Shown: positions 4,350 through 59,631 of the stretch, in pieces | Layout: every line of letters begins with the position of its first letter | Numbering within the stretch: position 1 is the stretch's first letter | DNA from: Chlamydiales bacterium | GTDB lineage: Bacteria; Chlamydiota; Chlamydiia; Chlamydiales; SM23-39 | NCBI GenBank assembly: GCA_035480615.1 | Contig: DATIHO010000048.1 | Location: forward strand, 2,849 to 66,848 | Direction of reading: 5' to 3' | DNA: 64,000 nt | Made by a program: the position numbers and the translations under genes | Notes under the pieces: model-generated | Databases searched by the model: none | What the model was told of the DNA's origin: nothing | What the model saw: only the letters and a program-made list of their open reading frames with translations

Positions 4350-4518
4350 CTAGTGCTCTGTCAAGCTTAAATTTGCGGTTTGGGCTGCGTCAAAGCCGCT
4401 GAAATCGCCGATCGCAAGTGGGTTCGTATTGTATTAATACGGACCCACTTGCGATCGACGATTTGAGCGAGCTTTCACGTCAGCCGAAACCATAAATTTA
4501 AGCTTGACAGAGCACTAG
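4350..4518. repeat. Long imperfect palindrome P1 (~169 bp; arms ~80 bp around the centre TATTGTATTAATA)
   Basis: The left arm is ctagtgctctgtcaagcttaaatttgcggtttgggctgcgtcaaagccgctgaaatcgccgatcgcaagtgggt. The reverse complement of the right arm differs at about 9 positions or indels. P1 lies between the convergent putA and 4532..5161. Confidence 0.85.
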
Positions 4519-5219: not shown

Positions 5220-5467
5220 TTTATTTTAATAAAAATTTAAATTAATTTAAATGATTTAATTAATAACGGGATTTAATTTTTTAATTGAGATTTGTTTTTT
5301 AAATAAAGGGATAAGATTGTTTATGAACCTGTCCCAGAAAAGGTCTATTGGACAAATGACTGCAAGGCTCGCTTGAAACGCTTGATCTTGTAAAATTTCT
5401 GTTCCATATATACACTTTTTCCAACCATCCTTGAAATGAACCCAACACTCAGGTTACTCATCTTGCA

Positions 5468-13812: not shown

Positions 13813-14975
13813 TTGTTCTTCGATCATCTCTTTTGCCCTCCAAAGCAATCCTTTTTTTTCTTTGGCTATTCCTTCTCGTATTTCCGAAAGGAGGATTTAA
13901 AATTGGTGCGATTCCCATCACTTGGGGATATGTGCTTTTGGGCATTGTCTCTCTTTTTTCCCTTTTTAGAAACCGTTACATGTTTCACAATTTAAGATTC
14001 AGCGCTTTTTTATTTACAATACCATTTCAAATAATCAGCATAATCAGTTTTATCATTCATGGAGTTGCAGATAACTCGTTATTAATTTCATTTTTAGTCA
14101 GTCTGCTATTTCTTCCATGGATTTTTTATCTTTTTTTGTCAGAATATATTGACTCTATGAATCTGTGCTTATTCCTTAGATTAGTAAAGACAGGTGTTCT
14201 TTTCGTTTCTTCATACGGAATTGCTCTTTTTATAATCAAATTAATAACGGGAAAATTAATTGAAATTCCATTTCTAACTGTAAACTACCATGATTATGGA
14301 GAAGTTGAAAACAAATGCAACAATAGGGGAAGTGTGTTTAAACTCATTTCCACTTATAATAATGGAAATATTTACGGAATATGCATTTTAATGCTGCTTC
14401 CGCTATATCAATTTCTGGAGTCTTCCAGATGGAAAAAAACCACAGTTTTTCTTTCTTTGATCTTATCTTTCTCTCGAACTGTCTGGGCAGGTTTGATTTT
14501 TAGTGAAATTATCGCATCCATTCTTCTAAAGAAGAAAAACATAATATTAAAATTGCTCACTACTCTTGCAATTTCTTTGATTGCAATCTTATCTATTACT
14601 TTCTATTTTGGATTTGATTTTTCGTTTCTCTTTGATGTAACAATGGGAGGCAGGGTCGATCAACTGGAATCCTTCAGTGCAATGCATCTTTTCCCCATCC
14701 AATCTTTTAGCGGAATCAATGAAATCGTGTATTTCGGGATCTTATCGAATTTTGGAATCGTTGGTCTGTTAAGTTTTGTAGCGGCATTGACGGGCCCCAT
14801 TTTATTTTCCTTTTCATATCCCTCTTTTTCACCCATCCGACAAGCCATCCTTTGCGGGCTGATCAATTATCTTTTTCTGTCCCTTTCGGATGGCGCTCTT
14901 CTTTTGATCCCTGTACTTGTATTTTACTGGTTTCTAAGCGCTCTGATTCTACGACAAGATTTATACCCGAAGTGA
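13809..14975 (+). CDS. Polytopic membrane protein, O-antigen ligase/polymerase-like (Wzy_C-like)
   Basis: About 10 predicted TM segments, plus an LSFSRTVWAGL block resembling the Wzy_C signature. Its start overlaps the topA stop as ATGA. The middle of the gene is visibly more AT-rich than its neighbours. The last four codons and the stop lie inside hairpin module A. Confidence 0.5.
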   Translation: MIVLRSSLLPSKAILFFLWLFLLVFPKGGFKIGAIPITWGYVLLGIVSLFSLFRNRYMFHNLRFSAFLFTIPFQIISIISFIIHGVADNSLLISFLVSLLFLPWIFYLFLSEYIDSMNLCLFLRLVKTGVLFVSSYGIALFIIKLITGKLIEIPFLTVNYHDYGEVENKCNNRGSVFKLISTYNNGNIYGICILMLLPLYQFLESSRWKKTTVFLSLILSFSRTVWAGLIFSEIIASILLKKKNIILKLLTTLAISLIAILSITFYFGFDFSFLFDVTMGGRVDQLESFSAMHLFPIQSFSGINEIVYFGILSNFGIVGLLSFVAALTGPILFSFSYPSFSPIRQAILCGLINYLFLSLSDGALLLIPVLVFYWFLSALILRQDLYPK

Positions 14976-14999
14976 TTCAAAAGTTGGCCTTTGGGTATA
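14962..14999 (+). repeat. Hairpin module A (TATACCCGAAG-N16-CTTTGGGTATA)
   Basis: The 38-bp sequence tatacccgaagtgattcaaaagttggcctttgggtata is identical to 41752-41789 except for one base. Confidence 0.9.
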
Positions 15000-15505: not shown

Positions 15506-15729
15506 AATGTATGATTTGCAAGAAAGGGGAGACTGCAAAAGGCATGGTAACGGTGACTCTTGAGCGCGGTGAAATGACCTTAGTAATAAAAAAAGTTCCT
15601 GCTAATGTTTGTCAAAATTGTGGAGAGGAATACGTAGATGAATCTACGACTTCGCAACTTCTCAAAACAGCAGAGGATGCTTTAAAAATGGGTGTTCACG
15701 TAGATATTCGCAATTTTCAGCTGGCATGA
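15502..15729 (+). CDS. YgiT/MqsA-type zinc-finger antitoxin-like protein
   Basis: The layout CxxC...VPANVCQNCGEEYVDESTTSQL is typical of the YgiT-type zinc finger that partners DUF4258 proteins. Confidence 0.65.
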   Translation: MKCMICKKGETAKGMVTVTLERGEMTLVIKKVPANVCQNCGEEYVDESTTSQLLKTAEDALKMGVHVDIRNFQLA

Positions 15730-15860: not shown

Positions 15861-16334
15861 ATGCTAATATCATCACAATCACTTTCCACACGATCTCTTC
15901 TCATGGCGCAAGCTTATGTCACAAATTGTCTAGCTCTTAATGAACCATGGCTCGTAGATGCGCTTGCTGATGAAGTGAGTGCTGTTTGGGCAAGAGTCGA
16001 ATCTGGTTTGGAATTACAGAAAACAGTAACAGAAGGAAAAGATGCTGTAGCAGAGCATTTTCAAAATACTTTCTTTGCAGTTACGAATAATTTCGATTTA
16101 TTGGAAGCAAAGTATTTTGCTTTTGGTCCGCAAGTTACCTTAAAATGTGTTATAGACCAGGATAAGATAGATCCCGATCAAGTCCAAAGGAGATACCACA
16201 TGATTTGTAATATAGATCTCGAGTTCAAAGAGGAAGGAGAGAATCTGAAAATCGTCAAAATCTGGGAAAGAACGTCCAAGCACCTCATCCGTGCGCGGTG
16301 CAATGACCTTAGTGGTAAAAAAAGTTCCTGCTAA
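15861..16334 (+). CDS. Hypothetical protein whose C-terminus reads out of frame into a duplicated antitoxin fragment
   Basis: 157-aa ORF with no family recognised. Its last ~14 codons lie inside the 119-bp duplicate (16292-16410), in a different frame from the antitoxin. Confidence 0.35.
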   Translation: MLISSQSLSTRSLLMAQAYVTNCLALNEPWLVDALADEVSAVWARVESGLELQKTVTEGKDAVAEHFQNTFFAVTNNFDLLEAKYFAFGPQVTLKCVIDQDKIDPDQVQRRYHMICNIDLEFKEEGENLKIVKIWERTSKHLIRARCNDLSGKKSSC

Positions 16335-16410
16335 TGTTTGTCAAAATTGTGGAGAGGAATGCGTAGATGAATCTACGACTTCGCAACTTCTCAAAACAGC
16401 AGAGGATGCT
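16292..16410 (+). repeat. 119-bp direct duplicate of the antitoxin gene segment 15564-15682 (~4 mismatches)
   Basis: gcgcggtgcaatgaccttagtggtaaaaaaagttcctgctaatgtttgtcaaaattgtggagaggaatgcgtagatgaatctacgacttcgcaacttctcaaaacagcagaggatgctt aligns with 15564-15682. The duplicate ends at the stop codon of the minus-strand adhesin gene. Confidence 0.85.
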
Positions 16411-18896
16411 TACGGAGGACAGGGCGTAGCGTTAGGGCAGGATTGAACGGGGTTGATCGTGCCTGAGGTGATAATGGTGCCTACATTCACGGTATCGACA
16501 TCGCATGGCGCCAAGTTGAAGACTCCGCCTCCCGGATTGGAGAGAAGAATATCGGTGCTGCTGTTATTGCCGGTAAACGTGAGGCAGGCTGCTGGGCTGG
16601 GCAAGGTTGATCCGATCGCTATCGCAAGTCCCGCATTGCCCGATAGCGTATTATTGGTAACAGAGCCGACAAGGGTTGTGAATTGTTCCATATCGAGGCC
16701 GGCCGATGCATTCGATGACAAGTTTGCGCAATTGCTCATCGTGTTGCCTGAAATATCCAATGTGAGAGAACCGATACCGGTAGGGGCATAGCTGAGGATC
16801 CCGGTCCCTTGGCATCTATTAATTTCGTTATTCAAGATGGTGAGATTCAGAGTAGCGAAGTCTTGGTTTATAGCGATTCCGTTTGATGAATTTCCAATGT
16901 CTGTAATGGCATTGTTGTTGATAGTGATAGTACCCGTTGTAGAATGGCCGGAGCTGATTATGGCGATTCCATTATCATTGCATCCCGTGATGCTATTGTC
17001 TGTTGCAAGGAGCGTCAAAGTATCGACTGGAGTCGCAAGGACCAGGCCAGAGCCTCCATTATCGGACATTGTATTCATAGATGCTGTGATTTCAAGAGCG
17101 GTCATTGCGCCGGAAGTATGCAGGTAAAGAGCATTCGATGTGTTTTCGGAAAGCGTGTTGCCGCTTAACACGATCGAACACTGATCAATCGTTCCGCTCG
17201 AAATGACCACAAAGCTCGATCCTAAACTACTTTGAGATCCCGTTCCGTTATCCGTTACCGTATTATTGAGAAATCCGATGTCAGCACCGACTACGCTGTC
17301 AAGGTTAAATCGGACGGTGCCTGTTATATTGCCGTTAAAGACATTCCTTTCAATTTGAGCGGAAAAGACGTTGCTGTCAGCTGCGATCTCCACAGGAACG
17401 CTGGAAACAGAAGTTTGCCCTTCAAATGTATTGTCCGAGCAGACGACAGTGGATGTCCCATTTAGAGTCAAAAAGACTCCGTTGACGTTATTCAAAAACT
17501 GGTTGTTCGTGACAGTTATGGAAGCATCGCCGGAAAAGGAAGCCTCGATTGCATAAGTACTTGTATCTTCAATTGTGCAAAAAGAGACATCCAGGCTTTG
17601 AACATCTGTTCCATAGAGGGCATCATTGATCGCAGATGTAATGATAAAGCCGCTTATGGAGTTATTGGCGGCTAGTGTGATTACGTTGCCATCTGTATCG
17701 ATATCGGTATTTGTAATGGTAGGGGAGGAGTTGCTTTGAGCAGGAATGGTGAAAGTCCCAAGGGATGTTTGTATGGAGTGGCTAACGCCTGAGCCCCAAA
17801 AATATTGGTTGTTTTGTAGCGCAATCCCCCCATCCATTCCGGTTGTCGTCCCATCGCCGGGAAATACGTAGATGATGTCGTTCATCCCGGAGTTCGCTTC
17901 AGCTAAAGCAAGCGTCGGATAGGGGCTTTCAAAAGTCCCGTTGGAGCTGCTTGTATTATTGACAAACTGAAAGAAATACGGCTCGCCGGTTGCAGGATCA
18001 ATCGCGGGTGTTTTTTGAGTCCTTTTTCCGACGACGATAATTTCATCTCTTCCTACAGGCTGGACCATTCGGGAGACGAGCGCATCCGCTAATTTGCAAG
18101 AATGACAGGCGTTTGTTGGTTTAACCCGCGATCTGCCTCCAAAAGGGAGGCTCAAGGTAAGCTGTCCCTGGAAATTGTTATGAAACATCCTGTCATATGA
18201 GTCGCTCACTTCGAGCGTGATGTATTCTTTGAACATCGCCGCTAAACGGGCTCTCCCTCCCCAGGTGTTGGGACCTATGGGACCTATGTAATAATAAGGG
18301 CCGGCTGCTGCATAAAAGTCAAAATTTTCCGTTTTACCGAAATGAAAACCGATCTCTGCATCGGCGCCTTTCATCGCGAATTGCCGCTTTTGGGAAAGGA
18401 GGAGATAATGACCTGAAAATCCATCAAAGCGCGTATCGTAGGGTGATGTACTCTTTTTCCCTACCGGCAAATACCCGTTCAGGCGGAAATCCCAAAGCTT
18501 CCCTAGCGTTTCAAGGCCAACTCCCACCTGATTGTAATGGAGCCTTTTCGTATTCCGGTAGTCATAATAGGCGTTCAGTCCAAATGTTCTGCACCCCGTG
18601 ATTCTTCTCAATCCAAGGCCCGCATTTGCTGCCATCTTTCCATTGTTAAAAATATGGCCGCGTACATCGAGAAATGGAATCATGCGCAATGGCTCTGGAT
18701 CGGGGGCAAAAAAGCCCTCGAGCGTCGTGTAGCCTTCGGAATATCCGACTCCACCTGTTTCTATATGCCGGACCGACACGCGGGCATGTCTTTTACCGTC
18801 CTGACAAATGTCTGAACCCGGCGGTTCCAACCCATCGCTAAACATTGCAATAGTCATAAAGCAAGCCAGAAAAATAGCACCAAAATGCAGCGACAT
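16410..18896 (-). CDS. Inverse autotransporter (type Ve, intimin/invasin-like N-terminal beta-barrel) with a parallel beta-helix passenger
   Basis: A signal peptide (MSLHFGAIFLACFMTIAMF) is followed by a ~250-aa region with alternating aromatic and Gly strands. That region (GLGLRRITG..FGLNAYYDYRNTKRLHYNQVGVGLETLGKLWDFRLNGYLP) resembles the intimin beta-domain. About 550 aa of NNxI(S/T)xN and G(T/S)G repeats follow, typical of PbH1 beta-helices. The protein ends in a Cys/Pro tail. Confidence 0.7.
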   Translation of the reverse strand: MSLHFGAIFLACFMTIAMFSDGLEPPGSDICQDGKRHARVSVRHIETGGVGYSEGYTTLEGFFAPDPEPLRMIPFLDVRGHIFNNGKMAANAGLGLRRITGCRTFGLNAYYDYRNTKRLHYNQVGVGLETLGKLWDFRLNGYLPVGKKSTSPYDTRFDGFSGHYLLLSQKRQFAMKGADAEIGFHFGKTENFDFYAAAGPYYYIGPIGPNTWGGRARLAAMFKEYITLEVSDSYDRMFHNNFQGQLTLSLPFGGRSRVKPTNACHSCKLADALVSRMVQPVGRDEIIVVGKRTQKTPAIDPATGEPYFFQFVNNTSSSNGTFESPYPTLALAEANSGMNDIIYVFPGDGTTTGMDGGIALQNNQYFWGSGVSHSIQTSLGTFTIPAQSNSSPTITNTDIDTDGNVITLAANNSISGFIITSAINDALYGTDVQSLDVSFCTIEDTSTYAIEASFSGDASITVTNNQFLNNVNGVFLTLNGTSTVVCSDNTFEGQTSVSSVPVEIAADSNVFSAQIERNVFNGNITGTVRFNLDSVVGADIGFLNNTVTDNGTGSQSSLGSSFVVISSGTIDQCSIVLSGNTLSENTSNALYLHTSGAMTALEITASMNTMSDNGGSGLVLATPVDTLTLLATDNSITGCNDNGIAIISSGHSTTGTITINNNAITDIGNSSNGIAINQDFATLNLTILNNEINRCQGTGILSYAPTGIGSLTLDISGNTMSNCANLSSNASAGLDMEQFTTLVGSVTNNTLSGNAGLAIAIGSTLPSPAACLTFTGNNSSTDILLSNPGGGVFNLAPCDVDTVNVGTIITSGTINPVQSCPNATPCPP

Positions 18897-18954
18897 AGGC
18901 GCCTTTAGTTTATACTAATTTTTTAAATGTCGTAAATAGTGAGTGTAATCTAAT

Positions 18955-19059
18955 AATCCAAGTTGCTAGTCGATCATCCTTAAACTTCGCCCAGGTTTCT
19001 GGGCCATCAAATTTTTTTGGTGGCGAAGTTTTAAGGATGATCGACTAGCAACTTGGATT
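18955..19059. repeat. ~105-bp hairpin (37-bp arms AATCCAAGTTGCTAGTCGATCATCCTTAAACTTCGCC, with one indel)
   Basis: The arms are at 18955-18991 and 19022-19059. The loop contains a small nested hairpin, cccag-gttt-ctggg. The element lies ~60 bp upstream of the adhesin start codon. Confidence 0.85.
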
Positions 19060-19471
19060 AATAATTTTCCCGGAAAGCCTAATTCTTGCTTTGCTTGACG
19101 CAGAGCTCGCGTTTCGCGTGGCAGTGTTTTTGGGTCGTTTGAAATAAGAAATAGGTCTTTCCCGCGTGTCTCATGCCTATGGGGCAACCTTAATCAATCG
19201 TTTTAGCTTCAGGAAATTTATAAGCACGAGGTGTGCTTTTTTCTGTGAATGAAAGCGCTGAGTGAAATTCTGCTTATAGTGTCTCTAAAATTGATTTCTA
19301 TTTCTCATCCTTTTGCATAAGGTCAATTATGATACAAGCTGTCCTTTCCTGAAATGACAGCTTTAACCCTAACTGGCTAATAATGAAAACGATAGTGATT
19401 TTTGTGAAATAATCCAGTCCAAAGTCGTAACGCAACAAGTATTAGAGTTTCTATGAAAAATAGGGGATCGG

Positions 19472-23970: not shown

Positions 23971-24008
23971 CCCGCCTAAAGGCCGATTCTTGAATCATTT
24001 TGGGTATA
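23971..24008 (-). repeat. Hairpin module E (degenerate, inverted copy of modules A and B)
   Basis: The reverse complement reads tatacccaaaatgattcaagaatcggcctttaggcggg. Module A reads tatacccgaagtgattcaaaagttggcctttgggtata. Confidence 0.7.
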
Positions 24009-24180
24009 AGAGGGTGTCTACAAAGTGAGGCTTCGTCGATTTTTGGGATTATTTTGGCCGATTTTCGATTCAAATTGTGGGGGTCATATACGAAAGTTGA
24101 TATTACCCCCACAATTTGAATCGAAAACCGGCTCAAAAGAACCCAAAAATCGACAGAAGCTCACATTGTAGACACTCTCT
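24009..24180. repeat. Long imperfect palindrome P2 (~172 bp)
   Basis: The left arm is agagggtgtctacaaagtgaggcttcgtcgatttttgggattattttggccgattttcgattcaaattgtggggg. The right arm is its imperfect reverse complement and ends ...ttgtagacactctct. Confidence 0.85.
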
Positions 24181-25384: not shown

Positions 25385-25499
25385 TCTGTGGCTCTGGTTC
25401 CAGATAGGAGCAGGGCTTGTTAACGAAAAAAGACGAGAAAACCGATCACTCAGTAAGAGGGTCGGTTTTTTTAGCTCTTGTGAAAAGCGATTCTTCAAG

Positions 25500-25661
25500 T
25501 AATACCATTTATCAAAAATAAGTTCACTTTGGCAAGGAAGCTGCACAAATTTTTGTGTCTGGAGCGAGCGACCATTGCCTATGGCCAAGGCGCGAGTATA
25601 CCCAAAAATTTGTTGCAAAGCTGACGTAGCCAAAGTGAACTTATTTTTGATAAGTGGTATA
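25500..25661. repeat. Long imperfect palindrome P3 (~162 bp) with a non-palindromic core shared with P4
   Basis: The arms are taataccatttatcaaaaataagttcactttgg... and ...ccaaagtgaacttatttttgataagtggtata. The core (25550-25608) is about 55/59 identical to 55791-55848. Confidence 0.85.
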
Positions 25662-25778
25662 AAATGCCTATTTCGCAGATCATATTTTTCTTTTCATGCA
25701 GCTTTTTGTTTCATGCGTATTGACAAAAAAAGGGAGGTTGTTTACAATACCTTCATATTTTGGTTATGGAAGGCAAAT

Positions 25779-26219: not shown

Positions 26220-26292
26220 GAAGCTGTACTAATACCAATCGCAACAAATAACTTCATATTTGAGCCGATTTTCGATCAAAATTTAGACAACT

Positions 26293-41751: not shown

Positions 41752-41789
41752 TATACCCAAAGTGATTCAAAAGTTGGCCTTTGGGTATA
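41752..41789 (+). repeat. Hairpin module B (TATACCCAAAG-N16-CTTTGGGTATA)
   Basis: The sequence is tatacccaaagtgattcaaaagttggcctttgggtata, with a perfect 11-bp stem. It lies 8 nt upstream of the start codon at 41744. Confidence 0.9.
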
Positions 41790-48872: not shown

Positions 48873-49735
48873 ATATCATTGGATTCGTGCTTTGTATTTT
48901 GTGTATTCTTTCTTTTAGCGCTATCGCCTCATTCCAAAAACAGATGGATTCCTATAGACTGAGAAGAAGCTATCTCGGCCACTTTGCCGCCAACCGTCAA
49001 ATTTTCGATCAGATAATCAGTGAATTTTATGCATCTTTCAAACAAAAATCTGGCCATAAAGAACACGCAACTAACGATTTTAAGCCAAAAACGGAAAATC
49101 CACCACCACCACCTCCTCCTATTAACGGTTCTTGCGCACGGCTCAATCTCTTCCCTCTAATTCATCGAAATATTGAAGATGTGCGGAGCCATTATGAAAC
49201 CGCTGCCCATATTCTCAAGATATTATATGGAGACACTCTTTTTGATAATAAGGCACAATCCGAATACAAATTTTTGGATGCTCTGTTAAAGGAGATTCGC
49301 AATAAAATGGTTAAAGATGAGTTTACGGCTCTTGAAAAAATATCTTTTAAAGATGGGAACGTCCAAAAGATGTATTATAAAATGCTTAAGGGCACCAAGA
49401 TAAATGGATATCTTTCTCTTCTCGATTACTTCAAATTTGAGCCCGTTTCTTCAAAAATCTGCCTTTTTCATGCCCATCCCACCCTTCTTTCTATTTTATT
49501 TACTCCCAAAGGGGCAGATAAACTGTATGCTGCATTGCATGCTTCGCAAGCGCCGGCGGTTACTCAGGAAAGCATTGAGCGGATCTGTCAAGAAGTGCAT
49601 GCTCCTTGCCCCCCTGCGTTCGATCTTTTTGAAATCAAACGGAAAAATCACGAAAAACCCTCAAAGGGTACCTTTATTGGGGAAGATTCCGAATACCGAA
49701 TCTTTCTAAGAAAAGAAGTTATATACCCAAAATGA
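48869..49735 (+). CDS. Hypothetical membrane-anchored protein with a poly-Pro stretch
   Basis: The start is set at MNIIGFVLCILCILSF, overlapping the upstream stop as ATGA. A PPPPPPPI run is present. The last codons YPK-stop lie in the repeat at 49722-49736. Confidence 0.45.
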   Translation: MNIIGFVLCILCILSFSAIASFQKQMDSYRLRRSYLGHFAANRQIFDQIISEFYASFKQKSGHKEHATNDFKPKTENPPPPPPPINGSCARLNLFPLIHRNIEDVRSHYETAAHILKILYGDTLFDNKAQSEYKFLDALLKEIRNKMVKDEFTALEKISFKDGNVQKMYYKMLKGTKINGYLSLLDYFKFEPVSSKICLFHAHPTLLSILFTPKGADKLYAALHASQAPAVTQESIERICQEVHAPCPPAFDLFEIKRKNHEKPSKGTFIGEDSEYRIFLRKEVIYPK

Positions 49736-49736
49736 T
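49722..49736 (+). repeat. Left half of a perfect 15-bp inverted repeat (TATACCCAAAATGAT)
   Basis: Its partner ATCATTTTGGGTATA is at 50564-50578. The core is the same as in hairpin modules A, B and E. Confidence 0.9.
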
Positions 49737-49878
49737 TCTTGGATTGGATTTAGGCTGACTGTTCTTGTTTTTGAGTGTACTTTGGTGTGGATTTTTGCTA
49801 TGATGGGCCCTCTGATGGCACAGAGGGCCAGGAGGATCGAAGCGATCTGGATAATAACCGTAAGAAAGTGAGCATGCT

Positions 49879-50563: not shown

Positions 50564-50578
50564 ATCATTTTGGGTATA
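50564..50578 (-). repeat. Right half of the perfect 15-bp inverted repeat (ATCATTTTGGGTATA)
   Basis: It is the reverse complement of 49722-49736. It encodes the YPK-stop ending of the minus-strand histidine kinase. Confidence 0.9.
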
Positions 50579-51908
50579 CCATTCGCAACGGTAAATCAAC
50601 TATGAAAGTGCTTCCGGCCCCGGGTGTTGAGGCGACAGATATTGTTCCCATATGTTTTTCGACAATCGTTTTCACGATAGACAAACCCAGCCCCGCTCCA
50701 CCTGATTTACGGGATCGAGCCTTATCGACCGTATAGAACCGGTCGAAGATATGGAGAATATCAGACTCCGGTATTCCTATGCCGTTATCTTGGACATGGA
50801 GCAGTACCCTACTCTCTTTTTTTTGGATCTTTATATCAATATTTGTAGGAACTGAGGAATACTTGATCCCATTTTCAATGAGATTCATGATGGCCAAATC
50901 GAGGAGATGCGCATCTCCAAGAATGGAGGCGGATTGCAGTTCGCTTTGAAAAGAAATGTGCGCGGATAAATGCACTGTCATCGCAAATTGTTTTGCATGC
51001 TCCGCGATCCATACAAGGTCTGTAAGCTGGAGCTTGTCTTGTGAATAATTTTCAATGTCCGCAAGGGTAAGTAAGCTTTTAATGAGATTTTCCAGTCGAT
51101 GGGAAGTGCGAACAATTTTTTCAAGAACGTCTTGAAGCATTTGCGGAGAAAGGTTAGGGAAATCTTGTAATGTTTCCGCAAATCCGCGGATGATGGTAAT
51201 CGGAGTTTTTAACTCATGCGACGCATTGGCAATGAAATCTTTTCCCATTTCAACTACTTTAAAATCAGAGCTTTTGTCTTGTAAAACTAAAATGACCCCT
51301 CGTTGAAATCGGGTAGCCGCTACCACTTCGAGATAAATTCCCCTTTTGCTTTCATGCCAACTTTTTTTAACTAACTGAGAAGTTTTCAATACCTCCTGAA
51401 TCAGTTCATGGCAAAGCAAAGCTAAATCTTTTTGCATCCCATCAATTCGATTCAGCGGAATCGATAAAAGTTCAGCACGAGAAACTCCAAGAAATTTGCA
51501 CGCCCATTCATTCGCAAATGTTGTTTTGGCCTGCATATCAGTCGCTATGACCCCTTCTCCCAAAGATTCGAGGATCTCTTCAACTTCCCTCCGAGCCAGT
51601 TTCAGACGGACGATTTGTTTTTCGAGATTTTCATTCATTGCATTCAAGACGGCCGCAATTTTTTCAAACTCTTCTTTTGAATAGCTGCGGATAAGATTCG
51701 CGGTTTTTCGAAAAGGGGATCCCCGTTTCATGAATATTAAAAAAAAATAAATCAAAAACTCGGCCCCTAAAATAAGAAGCATGATTCGAAATTCAACATT
51801 TAAAAATAGGTTCAGGACAAGAAAACAAAAAATAATAAGATTTATATCTTTGCGGATTCTAAGAGACCGTCGCATAGAAATTTTCCGAGCCTGTTTCTGT
51901 GACAACAA
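50565..51908 (-). CDS. Sensor histidine kinase (TM, PAS, HisKA and HATPase_c domains)
   Basis: The PAS-like segment is ILESLGEGVIATD. The H-box is ANASHELKTPITIIRG, the N-box LIENGIKYS and the G-boxes DNGIGIP and GGAGLGLSIV. No response regulator is adjacent. The 5' end overlaps the upstream gene, so the start is uncertain. Confidence 0.85.
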   Translation of the reverse strand: MLSQKQARKISMRRSLRIRKDINLIIFCFLVLNLFLNVEFRIMLLILGAEFLIYFFLIFMKRGSPFRKTANLIRSYSKEEFEKIAAVLNAMNENLEKQIVRLKLARREVEEILESLGEGVIATDMQAKTTFANEWACKFLGVSRAELLSIPLNRIDGMQKDLALLCHELIQEVLKTSQLVKKSWHESKRGIYLEVVAATRFQRGVILVLQDKSSDFKVVEMGKDFIANASHELKTPITIIRGFAETLQDFPNLSPQMLQDVLEKIVRTSHRLENLIKSLLTLADIENYSQDKLQLTDLVWIAEHAKQFAMTVHLSAHISFQSELQSASILGDAHLLDLAIMNLIENGIKYSSVPTNIDIKIQKKESRVLLHVQDNGIGIPESDILHIFDRFYTVDKARSRKSGGAGLGLSIVKTIVEKHMGTISVASTPGAGSTFIVDLPLRMVYPK

Positions 51909-55533: not shown

Positions 55534-55749
55534 TCACATTGATCCACGTTTGGCATGGCAGTTGCAACAAGAACTTGAACATTTGCAAGAAGACGAATCG
55601 TAGACATTACTTGTTCTGCATGTACACTCTTCCGGGCAGTTGCCAGCGTCACAACCTTTTGAGCTTACGCAAGCAGCCATTCCAATGCAGAGAAAAGAAA
55701 ATAAAACTTTTTTTATACAAACACCCCTTTTTTCCTGATATACCGACAC
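55534..55749 (-). CDS. Small cysteine-rich lipoprotein candidate (OmcA-like)
   Basis: 71 aa with a GTG start. A signal sequence and lipobox-like KKVLFSFLCIGMAAC are followed by about a dozen Cys in ~45 aa (CDAGNCPEECTCR...CKCSSSCCNC). Confidence 0.45.
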   Translation of the reverse strand: MSVYQEKRGVCIKKVLFSFLCIGMAACVSSKGCDAGNCPEECTCRTSNVYDSSSCKCSSSCCNCHAKRGSM

Positions 55750-55891
55750 AACCTGAAGAATCGGGAATGTGACAAGGAGGCGGCTTTAGTTTTTTGCGTC
55801 TGGAGCGAGCGACCATTGCCTATGGCAAGGCGCGAGTAACCCCAAAAAAATGCTGCCAAGCCGACGTCGTCAAAAACCGATTCTTCAGGTT
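55750..55891. repeat. Long imperfect palindrome P4 (~142 bp; termini AACCTGAAGAATCGG/CCGATTCTTCAGGTT; core shared with P3)
   Basis: The termini are perfect complements over 14 bp. The core (55791-55848) is about 55/59 identical to the P3 core. Confidence 0.85.
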
Positions 55892-55905
55892 GTTTCGGTA
55901 TATAT

Positions 55906-59464: not shown

Positions 59465-59631
59465 AACCTGAGTGTTGGGTTCAGTTTATAGAGAATTGTC
59501 ACAGATTTCGAGGCAATTTTTGAAGATTTTGACGGGCCCAAGCTAGAAAGCACCTATGGGCTCGTCAAAATCTTCGAAAATTGCCCGAAAGATGCGACAA
59601 GGCTCTATGAAATGAACCCAAAACTCAGGTT
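59465..59631. repeat. Long imperfect palindrome P5 (~167 bp; termini AACCTGAGTGTTGGGTTCA/TGAACCCAAAACTCAGGTT)
   Basis: The arms are about 75 bp around the centre aagctagaaagcacctat. P5 lies between the divergent genes starting at 59453 (-) and 59709 (+). Confidence 0.85.

Follow-up and report, generated by a model that had tools for sequence, protein, structure and literature searches.

The window considered here is a stretch of 64,000 nucleotides (G+C content 43.5%) from a Chlamydiales bacterium (GenBank assembly GCA_035480615.1, contig DATIHO010000048.1); one of its proteins is 100% identical to an MFS transporter recorded at NCBI for a 'Chlamydiales bacterium'. A first-pass annotation, made from the letters alone, had singled out two long palindromes, designated P3 and P4, located about 30 kb apart and sharing a core of about 59 bp. 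That P3 and P4 are copies of a miniature inverted-repeat transposable element (MITE) is, taken alone, very probable. They would represent two subfamilies of a non-coding element of about 160 nt, widespread among environmental chlamydiae (phylum Chlamydiota) and apparently undescribed. The full reading, in which the elements are MITEs and the core is the conserved centre of their family rather than a separate gene, is considered likely.

P3 is a 157-nt copy of subtype B located on the forward strand at positions 25503-25659, with ends TACCATTTATC...GATAAGTGGTA. It is bordered on the left (25500-25502) and on the right (25660-25662) by the trinucleotide TAA, read from the sequence as a target-site duplication. 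Its core (25550-25608) comprises the GGAGCGA strand of an internal loop (25561-25567), an apical hairpin (25568-25593) of the form GCG-A-CC-A-TTGCC / loop / GGC(C)AA-GG-CGC, and a degenerate 3' loop strand GAGTAT (25594-25599) in place of the family consensus GAGTGA. A second internal loop, falling in conserved alignment columns, is composed of the 5' strand CAAGGAAGCT (25533-25542; family form CAAGGAGGC) and its partner GCTGACGTAGCC (25620-25631). P4 is a 160-nt copy of subtype A, also on the forward strand (55741-55900), with ends TACCGACACAACCTGAAGAATCGG...CCGATTCTTCAGGTTGTTTCGGTA and the dinucleotide TA on either side (55739-55740 and 55901-55902), a putative target duplication. Its core (55791-55848) contains the corresponding GGAGCGA strand (55802-55808), apical hairpin (55809-55833) and degenerate 3' loop strand, here GAGTAA (55834-55839), and its second loop is made of CAAGGAGGC (55773-55781) facing GCCGACGTCGTC (55860-55871). 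Both 3' loop strands, as well as the core variant CGAGTATA displayed by P3, are singletons among the 130 copies of the family kept in this analysis.

The inverted arms of P3 (25502-25533/25629-25660) are 32 nt long and 97% complementary, those of P4 (55738-55764/55877-55903) 27 nt long and 96% complementary, and the fold z-scores relative to shuffled sequences are -10.4 and -8.7, respectively. A covariance model of the family, R1 (164 positions, 58 pairs), recognizes both copies over their full length, P3 with 138.1 bits (E 1.7e-27) and P4 with 139.2 bits (E 9.9e-28); the remaining matches in the window reach at most 47 bits, with equal score on both strands. The outer arms of P3 are 84.5% identical to those of a copy in locus L017 (metagenome-assembled genome, MAG, JBGAFT01) and the outer arms of P4 93.8% identical to those of a copy in L015 (a Rhabdochlamydiaceae MAG), L-numbers designating throughout the fetched genome or metagenome loci that hold copies.

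The two cores are identical at 55 of 59 aligned columns (93.2%, blastn-short), the single gap being the extra C of P3, and a 28-mer taken from the core occurs exactly twice in the window as compared to 0.00 occurrences expected from shuffles. The homology exceeds the core initially noted: 74 of 85 positions are identical between 25550-25634 and 55791-55874, and a total of about 105 nt is reached upon inclusion of a weaker leftward part that fades around positions 25531 and 55772 (CAAGGA[A/G]GC). The flanking arms do differ as reported, with 57% identity over the outer 45+45 nt. The accompanying view of a cargo carried in the loop of different long stems is not supported, since the subtypes align end to end with common islands and the arms of P3 and P4 are therefore diverged homologues, not unrelated stems; the islands common to them are the TAC ends, TTGAC/GTCAA and CAAGGAGG/CCGACG. 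Nor is the core unpaired and non-palindromic throughout, as it was taken to be: it contains an interrupted 10-bp hairpin (GCG-A-CC-A-TTGCC / GGCAA-GG-CGC) which is itself part of one continuous hairpin. Exchange of the core between P3 and P4 within the genome, i.e. concerted evolution, was considered and set aside. The closest core to that of P3 is indeed P4, at 0.879 versus 0.868 for unrelated copies, and the closest core to that of P4 is L001, at 0.909.

A nested insertion had also been suggested from the resemblance between the left flank of P3 and the right terminus of P4, and this suggestion stands. The sequence AAAASCGATTCTTCARGT is present at 25483-25500 and 55873-55890 only, with 0.01 occurrences expected in the window, and the flanking sequence that matches the right arm of P4, AAAAGCGATTCTTCAAGT, is found nowhere else in the window. 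Immediately to the left of P3 lies what is left of a right arm of subtype A (GTGAAAAGCGATTCTTCAAG, 25480-25499, forward strand), the apparent insertion site of P3, and this arrangement fits its insertion into an older copy. The remnant is incomplete, and on the 3' side of P3 only TATTTCG (approximately 25669-25675) recalls the rest of the arm.

Distribution, anatomy and fold of the family

Copies were retrieved by scanning the contigs of one genome per species for an exact 20-mer from the core, and metagenomes for the looser pattern GCGACCATTGCC-N3-7-GGCAAGGCG. The 20-mer was present in 19 stretches, of which 17 are true loci distributed among 8 species-representative genomes; the metagenome scan returned at least 120 stretches. 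The two remaining genome matches, both from Gemmatimonadota, and about 12 of the metagenome stretches lie in contigs of high G+C content and were set aside, their agreement with the pattern being put down to chance. In total, at least about 130 copies were kept (G+C content below 55% around the match), at least about 110 of them from metagenomes. Seven of the eight carrier genomes are labeled Chlamydiae or Rhabdochlamydiaceae, among them Candidatus Acheromyda pituitae (Rhabdochlamydiaceae according to NCBI), and the eighth is a MAG labeled as an unclassified 'bacterium'. Individual genomes hold several copies (six in JBGAFT01 and five in CALBHK01), near-identical within one genome though inserted at unrelated sites. 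Viral contigs and plasmid collections scanned for the core gave no matches. The searches of genomes and metagenomes and the covariance model that the first-pass annotation had called for thus bring out many chlamydial copies; the core is not confined to the pair seen in the window, and its conservation extends well beyond this genome. The core sequence is absent from the searchable literature, in which no account of MITEs in Chlamydiota was found either; nor is the phylum mentioned in a review of prokaryotic MITEs from 2024.

Complete copies measure 157-166 nt, mostly 161-166 nt, and 69 complete copies of 160-169 nt end in TATAC...GTATA. Three subtypes can be distinguished by their ends: A (TACCGAAACAACTTGAAGAATCGG..., represented in the window by P4), B (TACCATTTATCAAAAATAA..., represented by P3) and C (TACTCGTTCCAGTTGAAA..., absent from the window). 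They align over their whole length, with the TAC ends, TTGAC/GTCAA, CAAGGAGG opposite CCGACGNNG and the core as common islands. No conserved open reading frame (ORF) is present, P3 and P4 being in different frames and indels varying among the copies.

The fold was derived from an alignment of 44 copies, less than 90% identical to each other in pairwise comparison. RNAalifold returns a single continuous hairpin of 58 pairs, 43 of which display double changes. Paired cells amount to 95.6%, versus 34-44% when the partners are slid by 1-3 columns, and the covariation score is 0.532 versus 0.170 in shuffled alignments, with none of 500 shuffles attaining the observed values; helix 1 is paired at 95.1% across the 44 copies. 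Three spots remain fixed and asymmetric amid these covarying stems: the CAAGGAGG/CCGACG loop, the GGAGCGA/GAGUGA loop and the apical hairpin with its bulged A's. The core itself is made of a variable stem (GTCT/AGAC), the internal loop 5'-GGAGCGA / 5'-GAGUGA and the apical hairpin, in which two A's are bulged and a variable loop of 3-4 nt is enclosed (GCG-A-CC-A-UUGCC / loop / GGCAA-GG-CGC). The loop reads GAGA in 22 copies, GAAT in 11, UUCG in 11 and TTT in 9.

Written antiparallel, GGAGCGA and GAGUGA give the series A·G, G·A, C-G, G·U, A·G, G·A, namely two tandem G·A motifs flanking two pairs, and the second loop, GGAGGC / GCCGAC, offers another possible tandem G·A beside GGC/GCC. Judging from these letters, both internal loops would form tandem sheared G·A pairs. 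Only the forward strand of the element should therefore fold well, as its complement would carry C·T mismatches, and the forward strand is indeed the more stable one in 63 of 68 copies with RNA parameters and in 59 of 68 with DNA parameters. A K-turn was examined as an interpretation of GGAGCGA/GAGUGA and rejected upon inspection of the geometry, no 3-nt bulge being located directly before the GA.

The strand-specific fold raises the possibility that the transposon carries a structured RNA, a rod of the forward strand whose G·A loops and bulged A's bind a protein, and which would be either a small RNA or, within host messages, a signal in cis for regulation, stability or processing. Several observations speak in favor of such an RNA: the strong covariation of pairs around fixed asymmetric loops, the greater stability of the forward strand, and the prevalence of GAGA and UUCG among the apical loops. 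Two copies found by the model and not by the search pattern (L097:5653-5817 and L049:365-526) keep GGAGCGA...GAGTGA with an apical helix that is wholly changed yet perfectly paired. Mismatches of the G·T type also exceed those of the A·C type in the inner stem (26 vs 9). In the outer stem, however, the excess is not significant (47 vs 34), and the UUCG loops originate largely from the subfamily of one genome. It should be stressed that the copies share a phylogeny, so that the p-values for mismatch types and for fold energies presuppose more independence than there is. Template-switch correction can, in addition, generate covariation in long palindromes of DNA without any RNA. Since such correction can yield paired changes, the covariation was not counted as proof of an RNA. 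With the evidence from transcription signals and gene context, discussed below, this alternative is regarded as unlikely.

The modular arrangement proposed for the two palindromes was found to hold in part. The same interior does occur with three types of ends and the same ends occur with other interiors, as in L082:684-845, L123:7553-7725 and 941-1113, and L053:1410-1576; the stems themselves are not unrelated. The elements of L123, L082 and L053 share the ends and the outer loop of the family and differ in the interior hairpin (e.g. ...CAGCTAAACTTAAAAAGTTTAGCGATGCAGG...). As read from the sequence, such alternative interiors would indicate that the centre modules are interchangeable. Shorter forms devoid of the core exist as well, at L035:4773-4877 and L122:1246-1328 and, in the window, as the pair 14962-14999 / 41752-41789.

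Probable transposition and the candidate transposase

The family displays several of the features expected of MITEs: the copies are short and non-coding, bear terminal inverted repeats, are flanked by target-site duplications and are dispersed in multiple copies per genome. Of 20 copies of subtype B, 16 carry the same trinucleotide at either end (TAA in 9, TTA in 6 and TCA in 1); when the flanks were paired at random, the mean over 2000 shuffles was 7.9 and the highest value 14. Copies of subtypes A and C are bordered by TA on both sides in 38 of 44 cases, P4 included, which agrees with a TA duplication but also with a longer inverted repeat. Copies abutting through a common TA (GGTA-TA-TACC) are observed in L034, L045, L053 and L062, and copies broken up by other small elements in L127, L136 and L138. 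A small G+C-rich hairpin element (approximately CCCAGGGGTCCTCAAAGACGCATCGTCTTTGGGGTGGGGCG) interrupts the right arm in L136, in two copies of L138 and in L049, each time at the corresponding position of the arm, following GCCGAC/GCCAAC. Two independent assemblies of the same organism stop inside P4, at window positions 55851 and 55875; this organism has also been assembled as GCA_964526555.1.

The duplications bear directly on the proposal that the core is a recombination site, i.e. a target for a site-specific or single-strand DNA recombinase, with the hairpins as substrates of the integron attC, REP/RAYT or IS200/IS605 type and not as derivatives of DDE transposons. Imperfect palindromes with extrahelical bases are indeed reminiscent of attC and of other folded single-stranded DNA substrates, and the elements share this geometry, their extrahelical bases being fixed and their fold specific to one strand. 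Subtype B is nevertheless flanked by a duplication of 3 nt with variable sequence (TAA, TTA or TCA), and single-strand HUH or tyrosine systems are not known to make target duplications. The copies are moreover dispersed singly in intergenic regions instead of being arranged in cassette arrays, and no GTAG or CGTC tag is present at their ends. Clustering of the ORFs of about 120 loci revealed no recurrent integrase, RAYT or TnpA, an IS630-family DDE transposase being the only mobile-element protein to recur. A recombination site is therefore regarded as a most improbable explanation of the core.

The transposase in question is the one recurrent mobile-element protein of the fetched loci, found in five of them, and it contains the DDE_3 and HTH_33 domains as in IS630-family transposases. 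It is encoded by the single DDE_3 ORF of an insertion sequence of 1143-1145 bp, with 27-bp inverted ends TAGCACTTCCAGTTGAAAGGCACCCAAA and TA flanks, copies of which are located in L136 (reverse complement, approximately 729-1874), L116 (100-1242) and L069. In three independent contigs, this insertion sequence sits exactly in the TA between abutting MITE ends (GGTA-TA|IS|TA-TACC), and the MITE termini therefore appear to be preferred targets for it. The subtype-C ends match those of the insertion sequence at 14-16 of 25 positions (e.g. CTTCCAGTTGAAA), and the ends of core-less MITEs located next to it at 18-19 of 25. A link to this enzyme is reasonable for subtype C and, judging from the ends, an extrapolation for P3 and P4. 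No autonomous element with subtype A or B ends was found in the fetched loci; the sole long pair of such ends (L067, 3285-4833) encloses Ku and a DUF393-like gene instead of a transposase.

The family can be compared to several known groups of bacterial repeats. ERIC/IRU sequences of enterobacteria are imperfect intergenic palindromes of about 127-165 nt, unusually conserved across species for a purpose that is unexplained (reviewed in PMC2229807). Size, location, imperfect palindromy and the puzzle of cross-species conservation are common to both; there is no sequence similarity, and ERIC has neither clear target duplications nor a known transposase partner, whereas both kinds of evidence exist for the chlamydial family. 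MITEs of the Tourist/PIF-Harbinger type and the IS1031 group of the IS5 family generate 3-bp T-N-A or T-W-A duplications. The TAA and TTA duplications of subtype B, P3 included, are similar to these, but the DNA examined yielded neither a transposase of the IS5 family nor matching ends, and the subtype-B interior is homologous to that of the TA-flanked subtypes. REP/BIME palindromes of 20-40 nt carry a GTAG/CGTC tag, make no target duplication and are linked to a RAYT gene, in contrast to the chlamydial elements, which are about 160 nt long and untagged, with T-N-A or TA duplications and no RAYT-like ORF recurring near the copies.

The closest likeness in behavior is to Correia elements and to RUP. 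The centre of the Correia elements of Neisseria (CREE/NEMIS) binds IHF, and their hairpin transcripts are substrates of RNase III (PMC2649163, PMC2229807). Like them, the chlamydial elements are non-coding, about 100-160 bp long and present in many dispersed intergenic copies, with terminal inverted repeats starting with TATA(G/C), TA flanks and a conserved non-palindromic centre. They differ in host phylum and in the sequence of both termini and interior, they are paired from end to end (58 pairs) around G·A loops and bulged A's that stay fixed, and the promoter-creating ends of Correia elements were not found in P3 or P4. No IHF consensus (WATCAANNNNTTR) was seen by eye in the chlamydial core. 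By analogy, the resemblance may point to a possible working mode, for which the central IHF site would be the analogue, and not to membership. RUP of Streptococcus pneumoniae is a 107-bp MITE thought to be moved by IS630-Spn1 and located near other mobile elements (PMC3049150). Both it and the chlamydial family are short and non-autonomous, tend to sit in or beside other mobile elements and have ends resembling an IS630-family element of the same genomes, here in the case of subtype C; sequence, size and host are different, the resemblance of the ends is weaker in P3 and P4, and subtype B is flanked by T-N-A instead of TA. By sequence, the family belongs to none of Correia, RUP and ERIC. It is unusual in combining a strongly conserved, strand-specific interior with the shuffling of modules between ends and interiors.

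Neighboring genes, derivatives and other repeats of the window

The gene located upstream of P3 (24332-25384) encodes a 350-aa P-loop protein with a weak match to Zeta_toxin/AAA_33 (E 1e-7) and is followed on its 3' side by a hairpin and a T-run at approximately 25445-25476. On the reverse strand at 55534-55749, an ORF of 71 aa encodes a cysteine-rich protein with a lipoprotein-like N-terminus (…FLCIGMAAC…) and without Pfam match, reminiscent of the small cysteine-rich envelope proteins of chlamydiae; it adjoins an ORF of 284 aa, likewise without Pfam match. As the left end of P4 overlaps its putative GTG start, P4 is located in the 5' region of the 71-aa gene.

Smaller derivatives of the family are scattered over the window. 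A 38-nt core-less mini-derivative with subtype-A-like ends (TATACCCGAAGTGATTCAAAAGTTGG|CCTTTGGGTATA) is found on the forward strand at 14962-14999, its left arm matching full-length copies such as L016 and L034, and a second one, 97% identical, on the same strand at 41752-41789. Solo subtype-A-like ends are located at 23983-24008 on the reverse strand (TATACCCAAAATGATTCAAGAATCGG) and at 49722-49747 on the forward strand (TATACCCAAAATGATTCTTGGATTGG). Positions 50569-50590 display back-to-back solo ends with common bases (TTTTGGGTATACCATTCGC); they look like the fusion of a right end resembling subtype A with a left end resembling subtype B, and are probably remnants of abutting insertions.

Other palindromes of the window are distinct from the family. 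The one at 4350-4518 is a near-perfect palindrome of 169 nt with nested arms (4350-4387/4481-4518 and 4397-4430/4436-4469) and CTAG flanks. Its ends, TAGTGCTCTGTCAAGC, have their first 7-8 bases in common with the IS630-family ends of L116 (TAGTGCTTCC), and its scores with R1, 44-47 bits on both strands, reflect generic hairpin similarity only; it probably represents a different MITE family. A palindrome of 172 nt at 24009-24180, with 81-nt arms that are 84% complementary and a 10-nt spacer, adjoins the solo end at 23983-24008. Part of this palindrome (27 nt, 24050-24076) is found again at 26257-26283, near the end (26236) of three Logan assemblies of the organism. Two further long palindromes of unrelated sequence are located at 18951-19063 and 59467-59629, and the last 22-25 nt of the latter (TGAACCCAAAACTCAGGTT) are present once more, by themselves, at 5432-5456. 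The window thus contains no fewer than four or five distinct families of hairpin repeats, in addition to a 119-nt direct repeat (15564-15682 and 16293-16411, 97% identical, 729 nt apart).

Possible role of the conserved core

The constraint acting on the core was assessed at two depths of divergence. Between lineages, variability is 0.07 in the GGAGCGA/GAGTGA loop, 0.11 in the second loop and 0.31 in the stems, the loops being about 3-4 times less variable. Within five young subfamilies, private substitutions, small in number, occur at equal rates in loops and stems, 7/286 (2.4%) in the GGAGCGA/GAGTGA loop, 7/330 (2.1%) in the second loop and 47/2173 (2.2%) in the stems; strong constraint after insertion would, by our estimate, predict roughly one event per loop at most, not seven. 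Taken together, the equal rates in young copies and the low variability between lineages imply that inserted copies decay freely, with the motifs being kept by the lineages that are still spreading. The degenerate 3' loop strands of P3 and P4 fit such free decay. A constraint exerted on loops between lineages and not in young copies in turn points to a role in the element's own propagation.

The same data could be read as the absence of any function, the core being merely the slowest-decaying part of a young family spread horizontally among chlamydiae and the likeness of P3 to P4 a matter of shared ancestry. The lack of constraint on the motifs of inserted copies agrees with this, as do the degenerate 3' side of the P3 and P4 cores and an apparent invariance that stems in part from the exact-match search patterns. 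The GGAGCGA and GAGTGA strands, however, are conserved although they lie outside the metagenome search pattern, with a variability about 4 times lower than that of the stems; the core is still 93% identical between subtypes whose arms have diverged to 57%; and the same interior is found with three end types. Furthermore, although palindromy is kept at 95% elsewhere in the element, the G·A positions have stayed asymmetric. Drift or palindrome-correcting mutation would erase this asymmetry, and its persistence therefore counts against a functionless core, an explanation held to be very unlikely.

Evidence for a transcript was sought in the elements and in their surroundings. Scanning of P3 and P4 revealed no promoter- or terminator-like site inside either element, the good promoter at 25720-25748 being located outside P3. 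An internal sigma-70 promoter based on the TTGACA island was dismissed, as neither the alignment nor the scanner disclosed a conserved -10 downstream of it, and so was a short ORF behind AAGGAGG, no start codon being placed at the right distance and the frames of P3 and P4 being different. The window contains no match to Rfam 15 at the gathering thresholds, and E-value scans of P3 and of the consensus-like copy L015 yielded only nonspecific matches, to long hairpins, miRNA precursors and terminators, with scores far under the gathering cut-offs. Gene context was compiled from about 90 loci with crude ORF calls. The 3' ends of genes are favored: 40 of 64 left neighbors and 42 of 68 right neighbors point toward the element, and 18 elements lie between convergent genes versus 8 between divergent ones. 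This preference is compatible with the structured RNA introduced above, whereas the orientation relative to co-directional neighbors shows none (11 sense, 9 antisense), so that many copies would yield only the reverse strand by read-through. A small-RNA gene, one of the roles initially put forward for the core, is accordingly not supported, lacking a promoter and terminator, an Rfam family and an orientation bias, with motifs that mutate at the stem rate in young copies. The recombination site was seen above to be at odds with the target-site duplications, and the remaining proposal, a protein-binding site, is possible.

The reading retained here is that of a MITE whose centre serves the element. 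The elements would be moved in trans by a DDE transposase, the IS630-family enzyme being a candidate for the TA-flanked subtypes since a 1.14-kb IS630-family element with related ends adjoins copies in other chlamydial contigs. The core would be kept because the lineages need it for further spread, and not for a service rendered to the host by each inserted copy. In such a scheme, the interior would function as a cis-acting module that raises the chance of propagation, recognized in folded form (single strand or cruciform) or else by a protein that bends DNA, the latter helping the two ends of a 160-bp element to meet as the central IHF site does in Correia elements (PMC2649163, PMC2229807). 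This specific role, drawn by analogy, is advanced tentatively, at somewhat less than an even chance.

A number of observations weigh against the retained reading. Mobility is deduced from the duplications and the copy distribution alone, no empty site having been seen: the orthologue of the flanking MFS gene in the nearest other genome is 65% identical, and the other assemblies of the organism end at repeats. No transposase is encoded within the 64-kb window, the subtype A and B ends (P4 and P3) match the IS630-family ends at only 9-11 of 25 positions, and subtype B, with T-N-A in place of the TA duplication that this family should produce, may depend on another or a variant enzyme. The 21 central bases were fixed by the search patterns, which makes their invariance partly a matter of ascertainment, and the comparison of private mutations is based on 7+7 events in 22 sequences. 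Finally, core-less derivatives exist in more than one copy (14962/41752 in the window; L035 and L122), and the core is therefore not strictly required for movement.

A bolder version of the scheme can be envisaged, possible yet on balance doubtful. In it, the interior, with its two G·A-rich loops and bulged apical hairpin, would be a self-contained and strand-specific module of RNA or folded single-stranded DNA, joined by recombination to transposon ends of no fewer than three kinds and promoting the spread of any MITE that carries it. If true, such a portable module would constitute a 'transposition enhancer' or else a protein-binding RNA that is mobile, so far undescribed in bacteria.

Environmental chlamydiae are known mostly from MAGs, and the repeat breaks their assemblies. 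The covariance model R1 allows annotators to mask or flag the family, and the presence or absence of individual copies is a possible strain marker. The family also provides a clean case for the old puzzle of why the centres of bacterial MITEs such as ERIC and Correia are so conserved.

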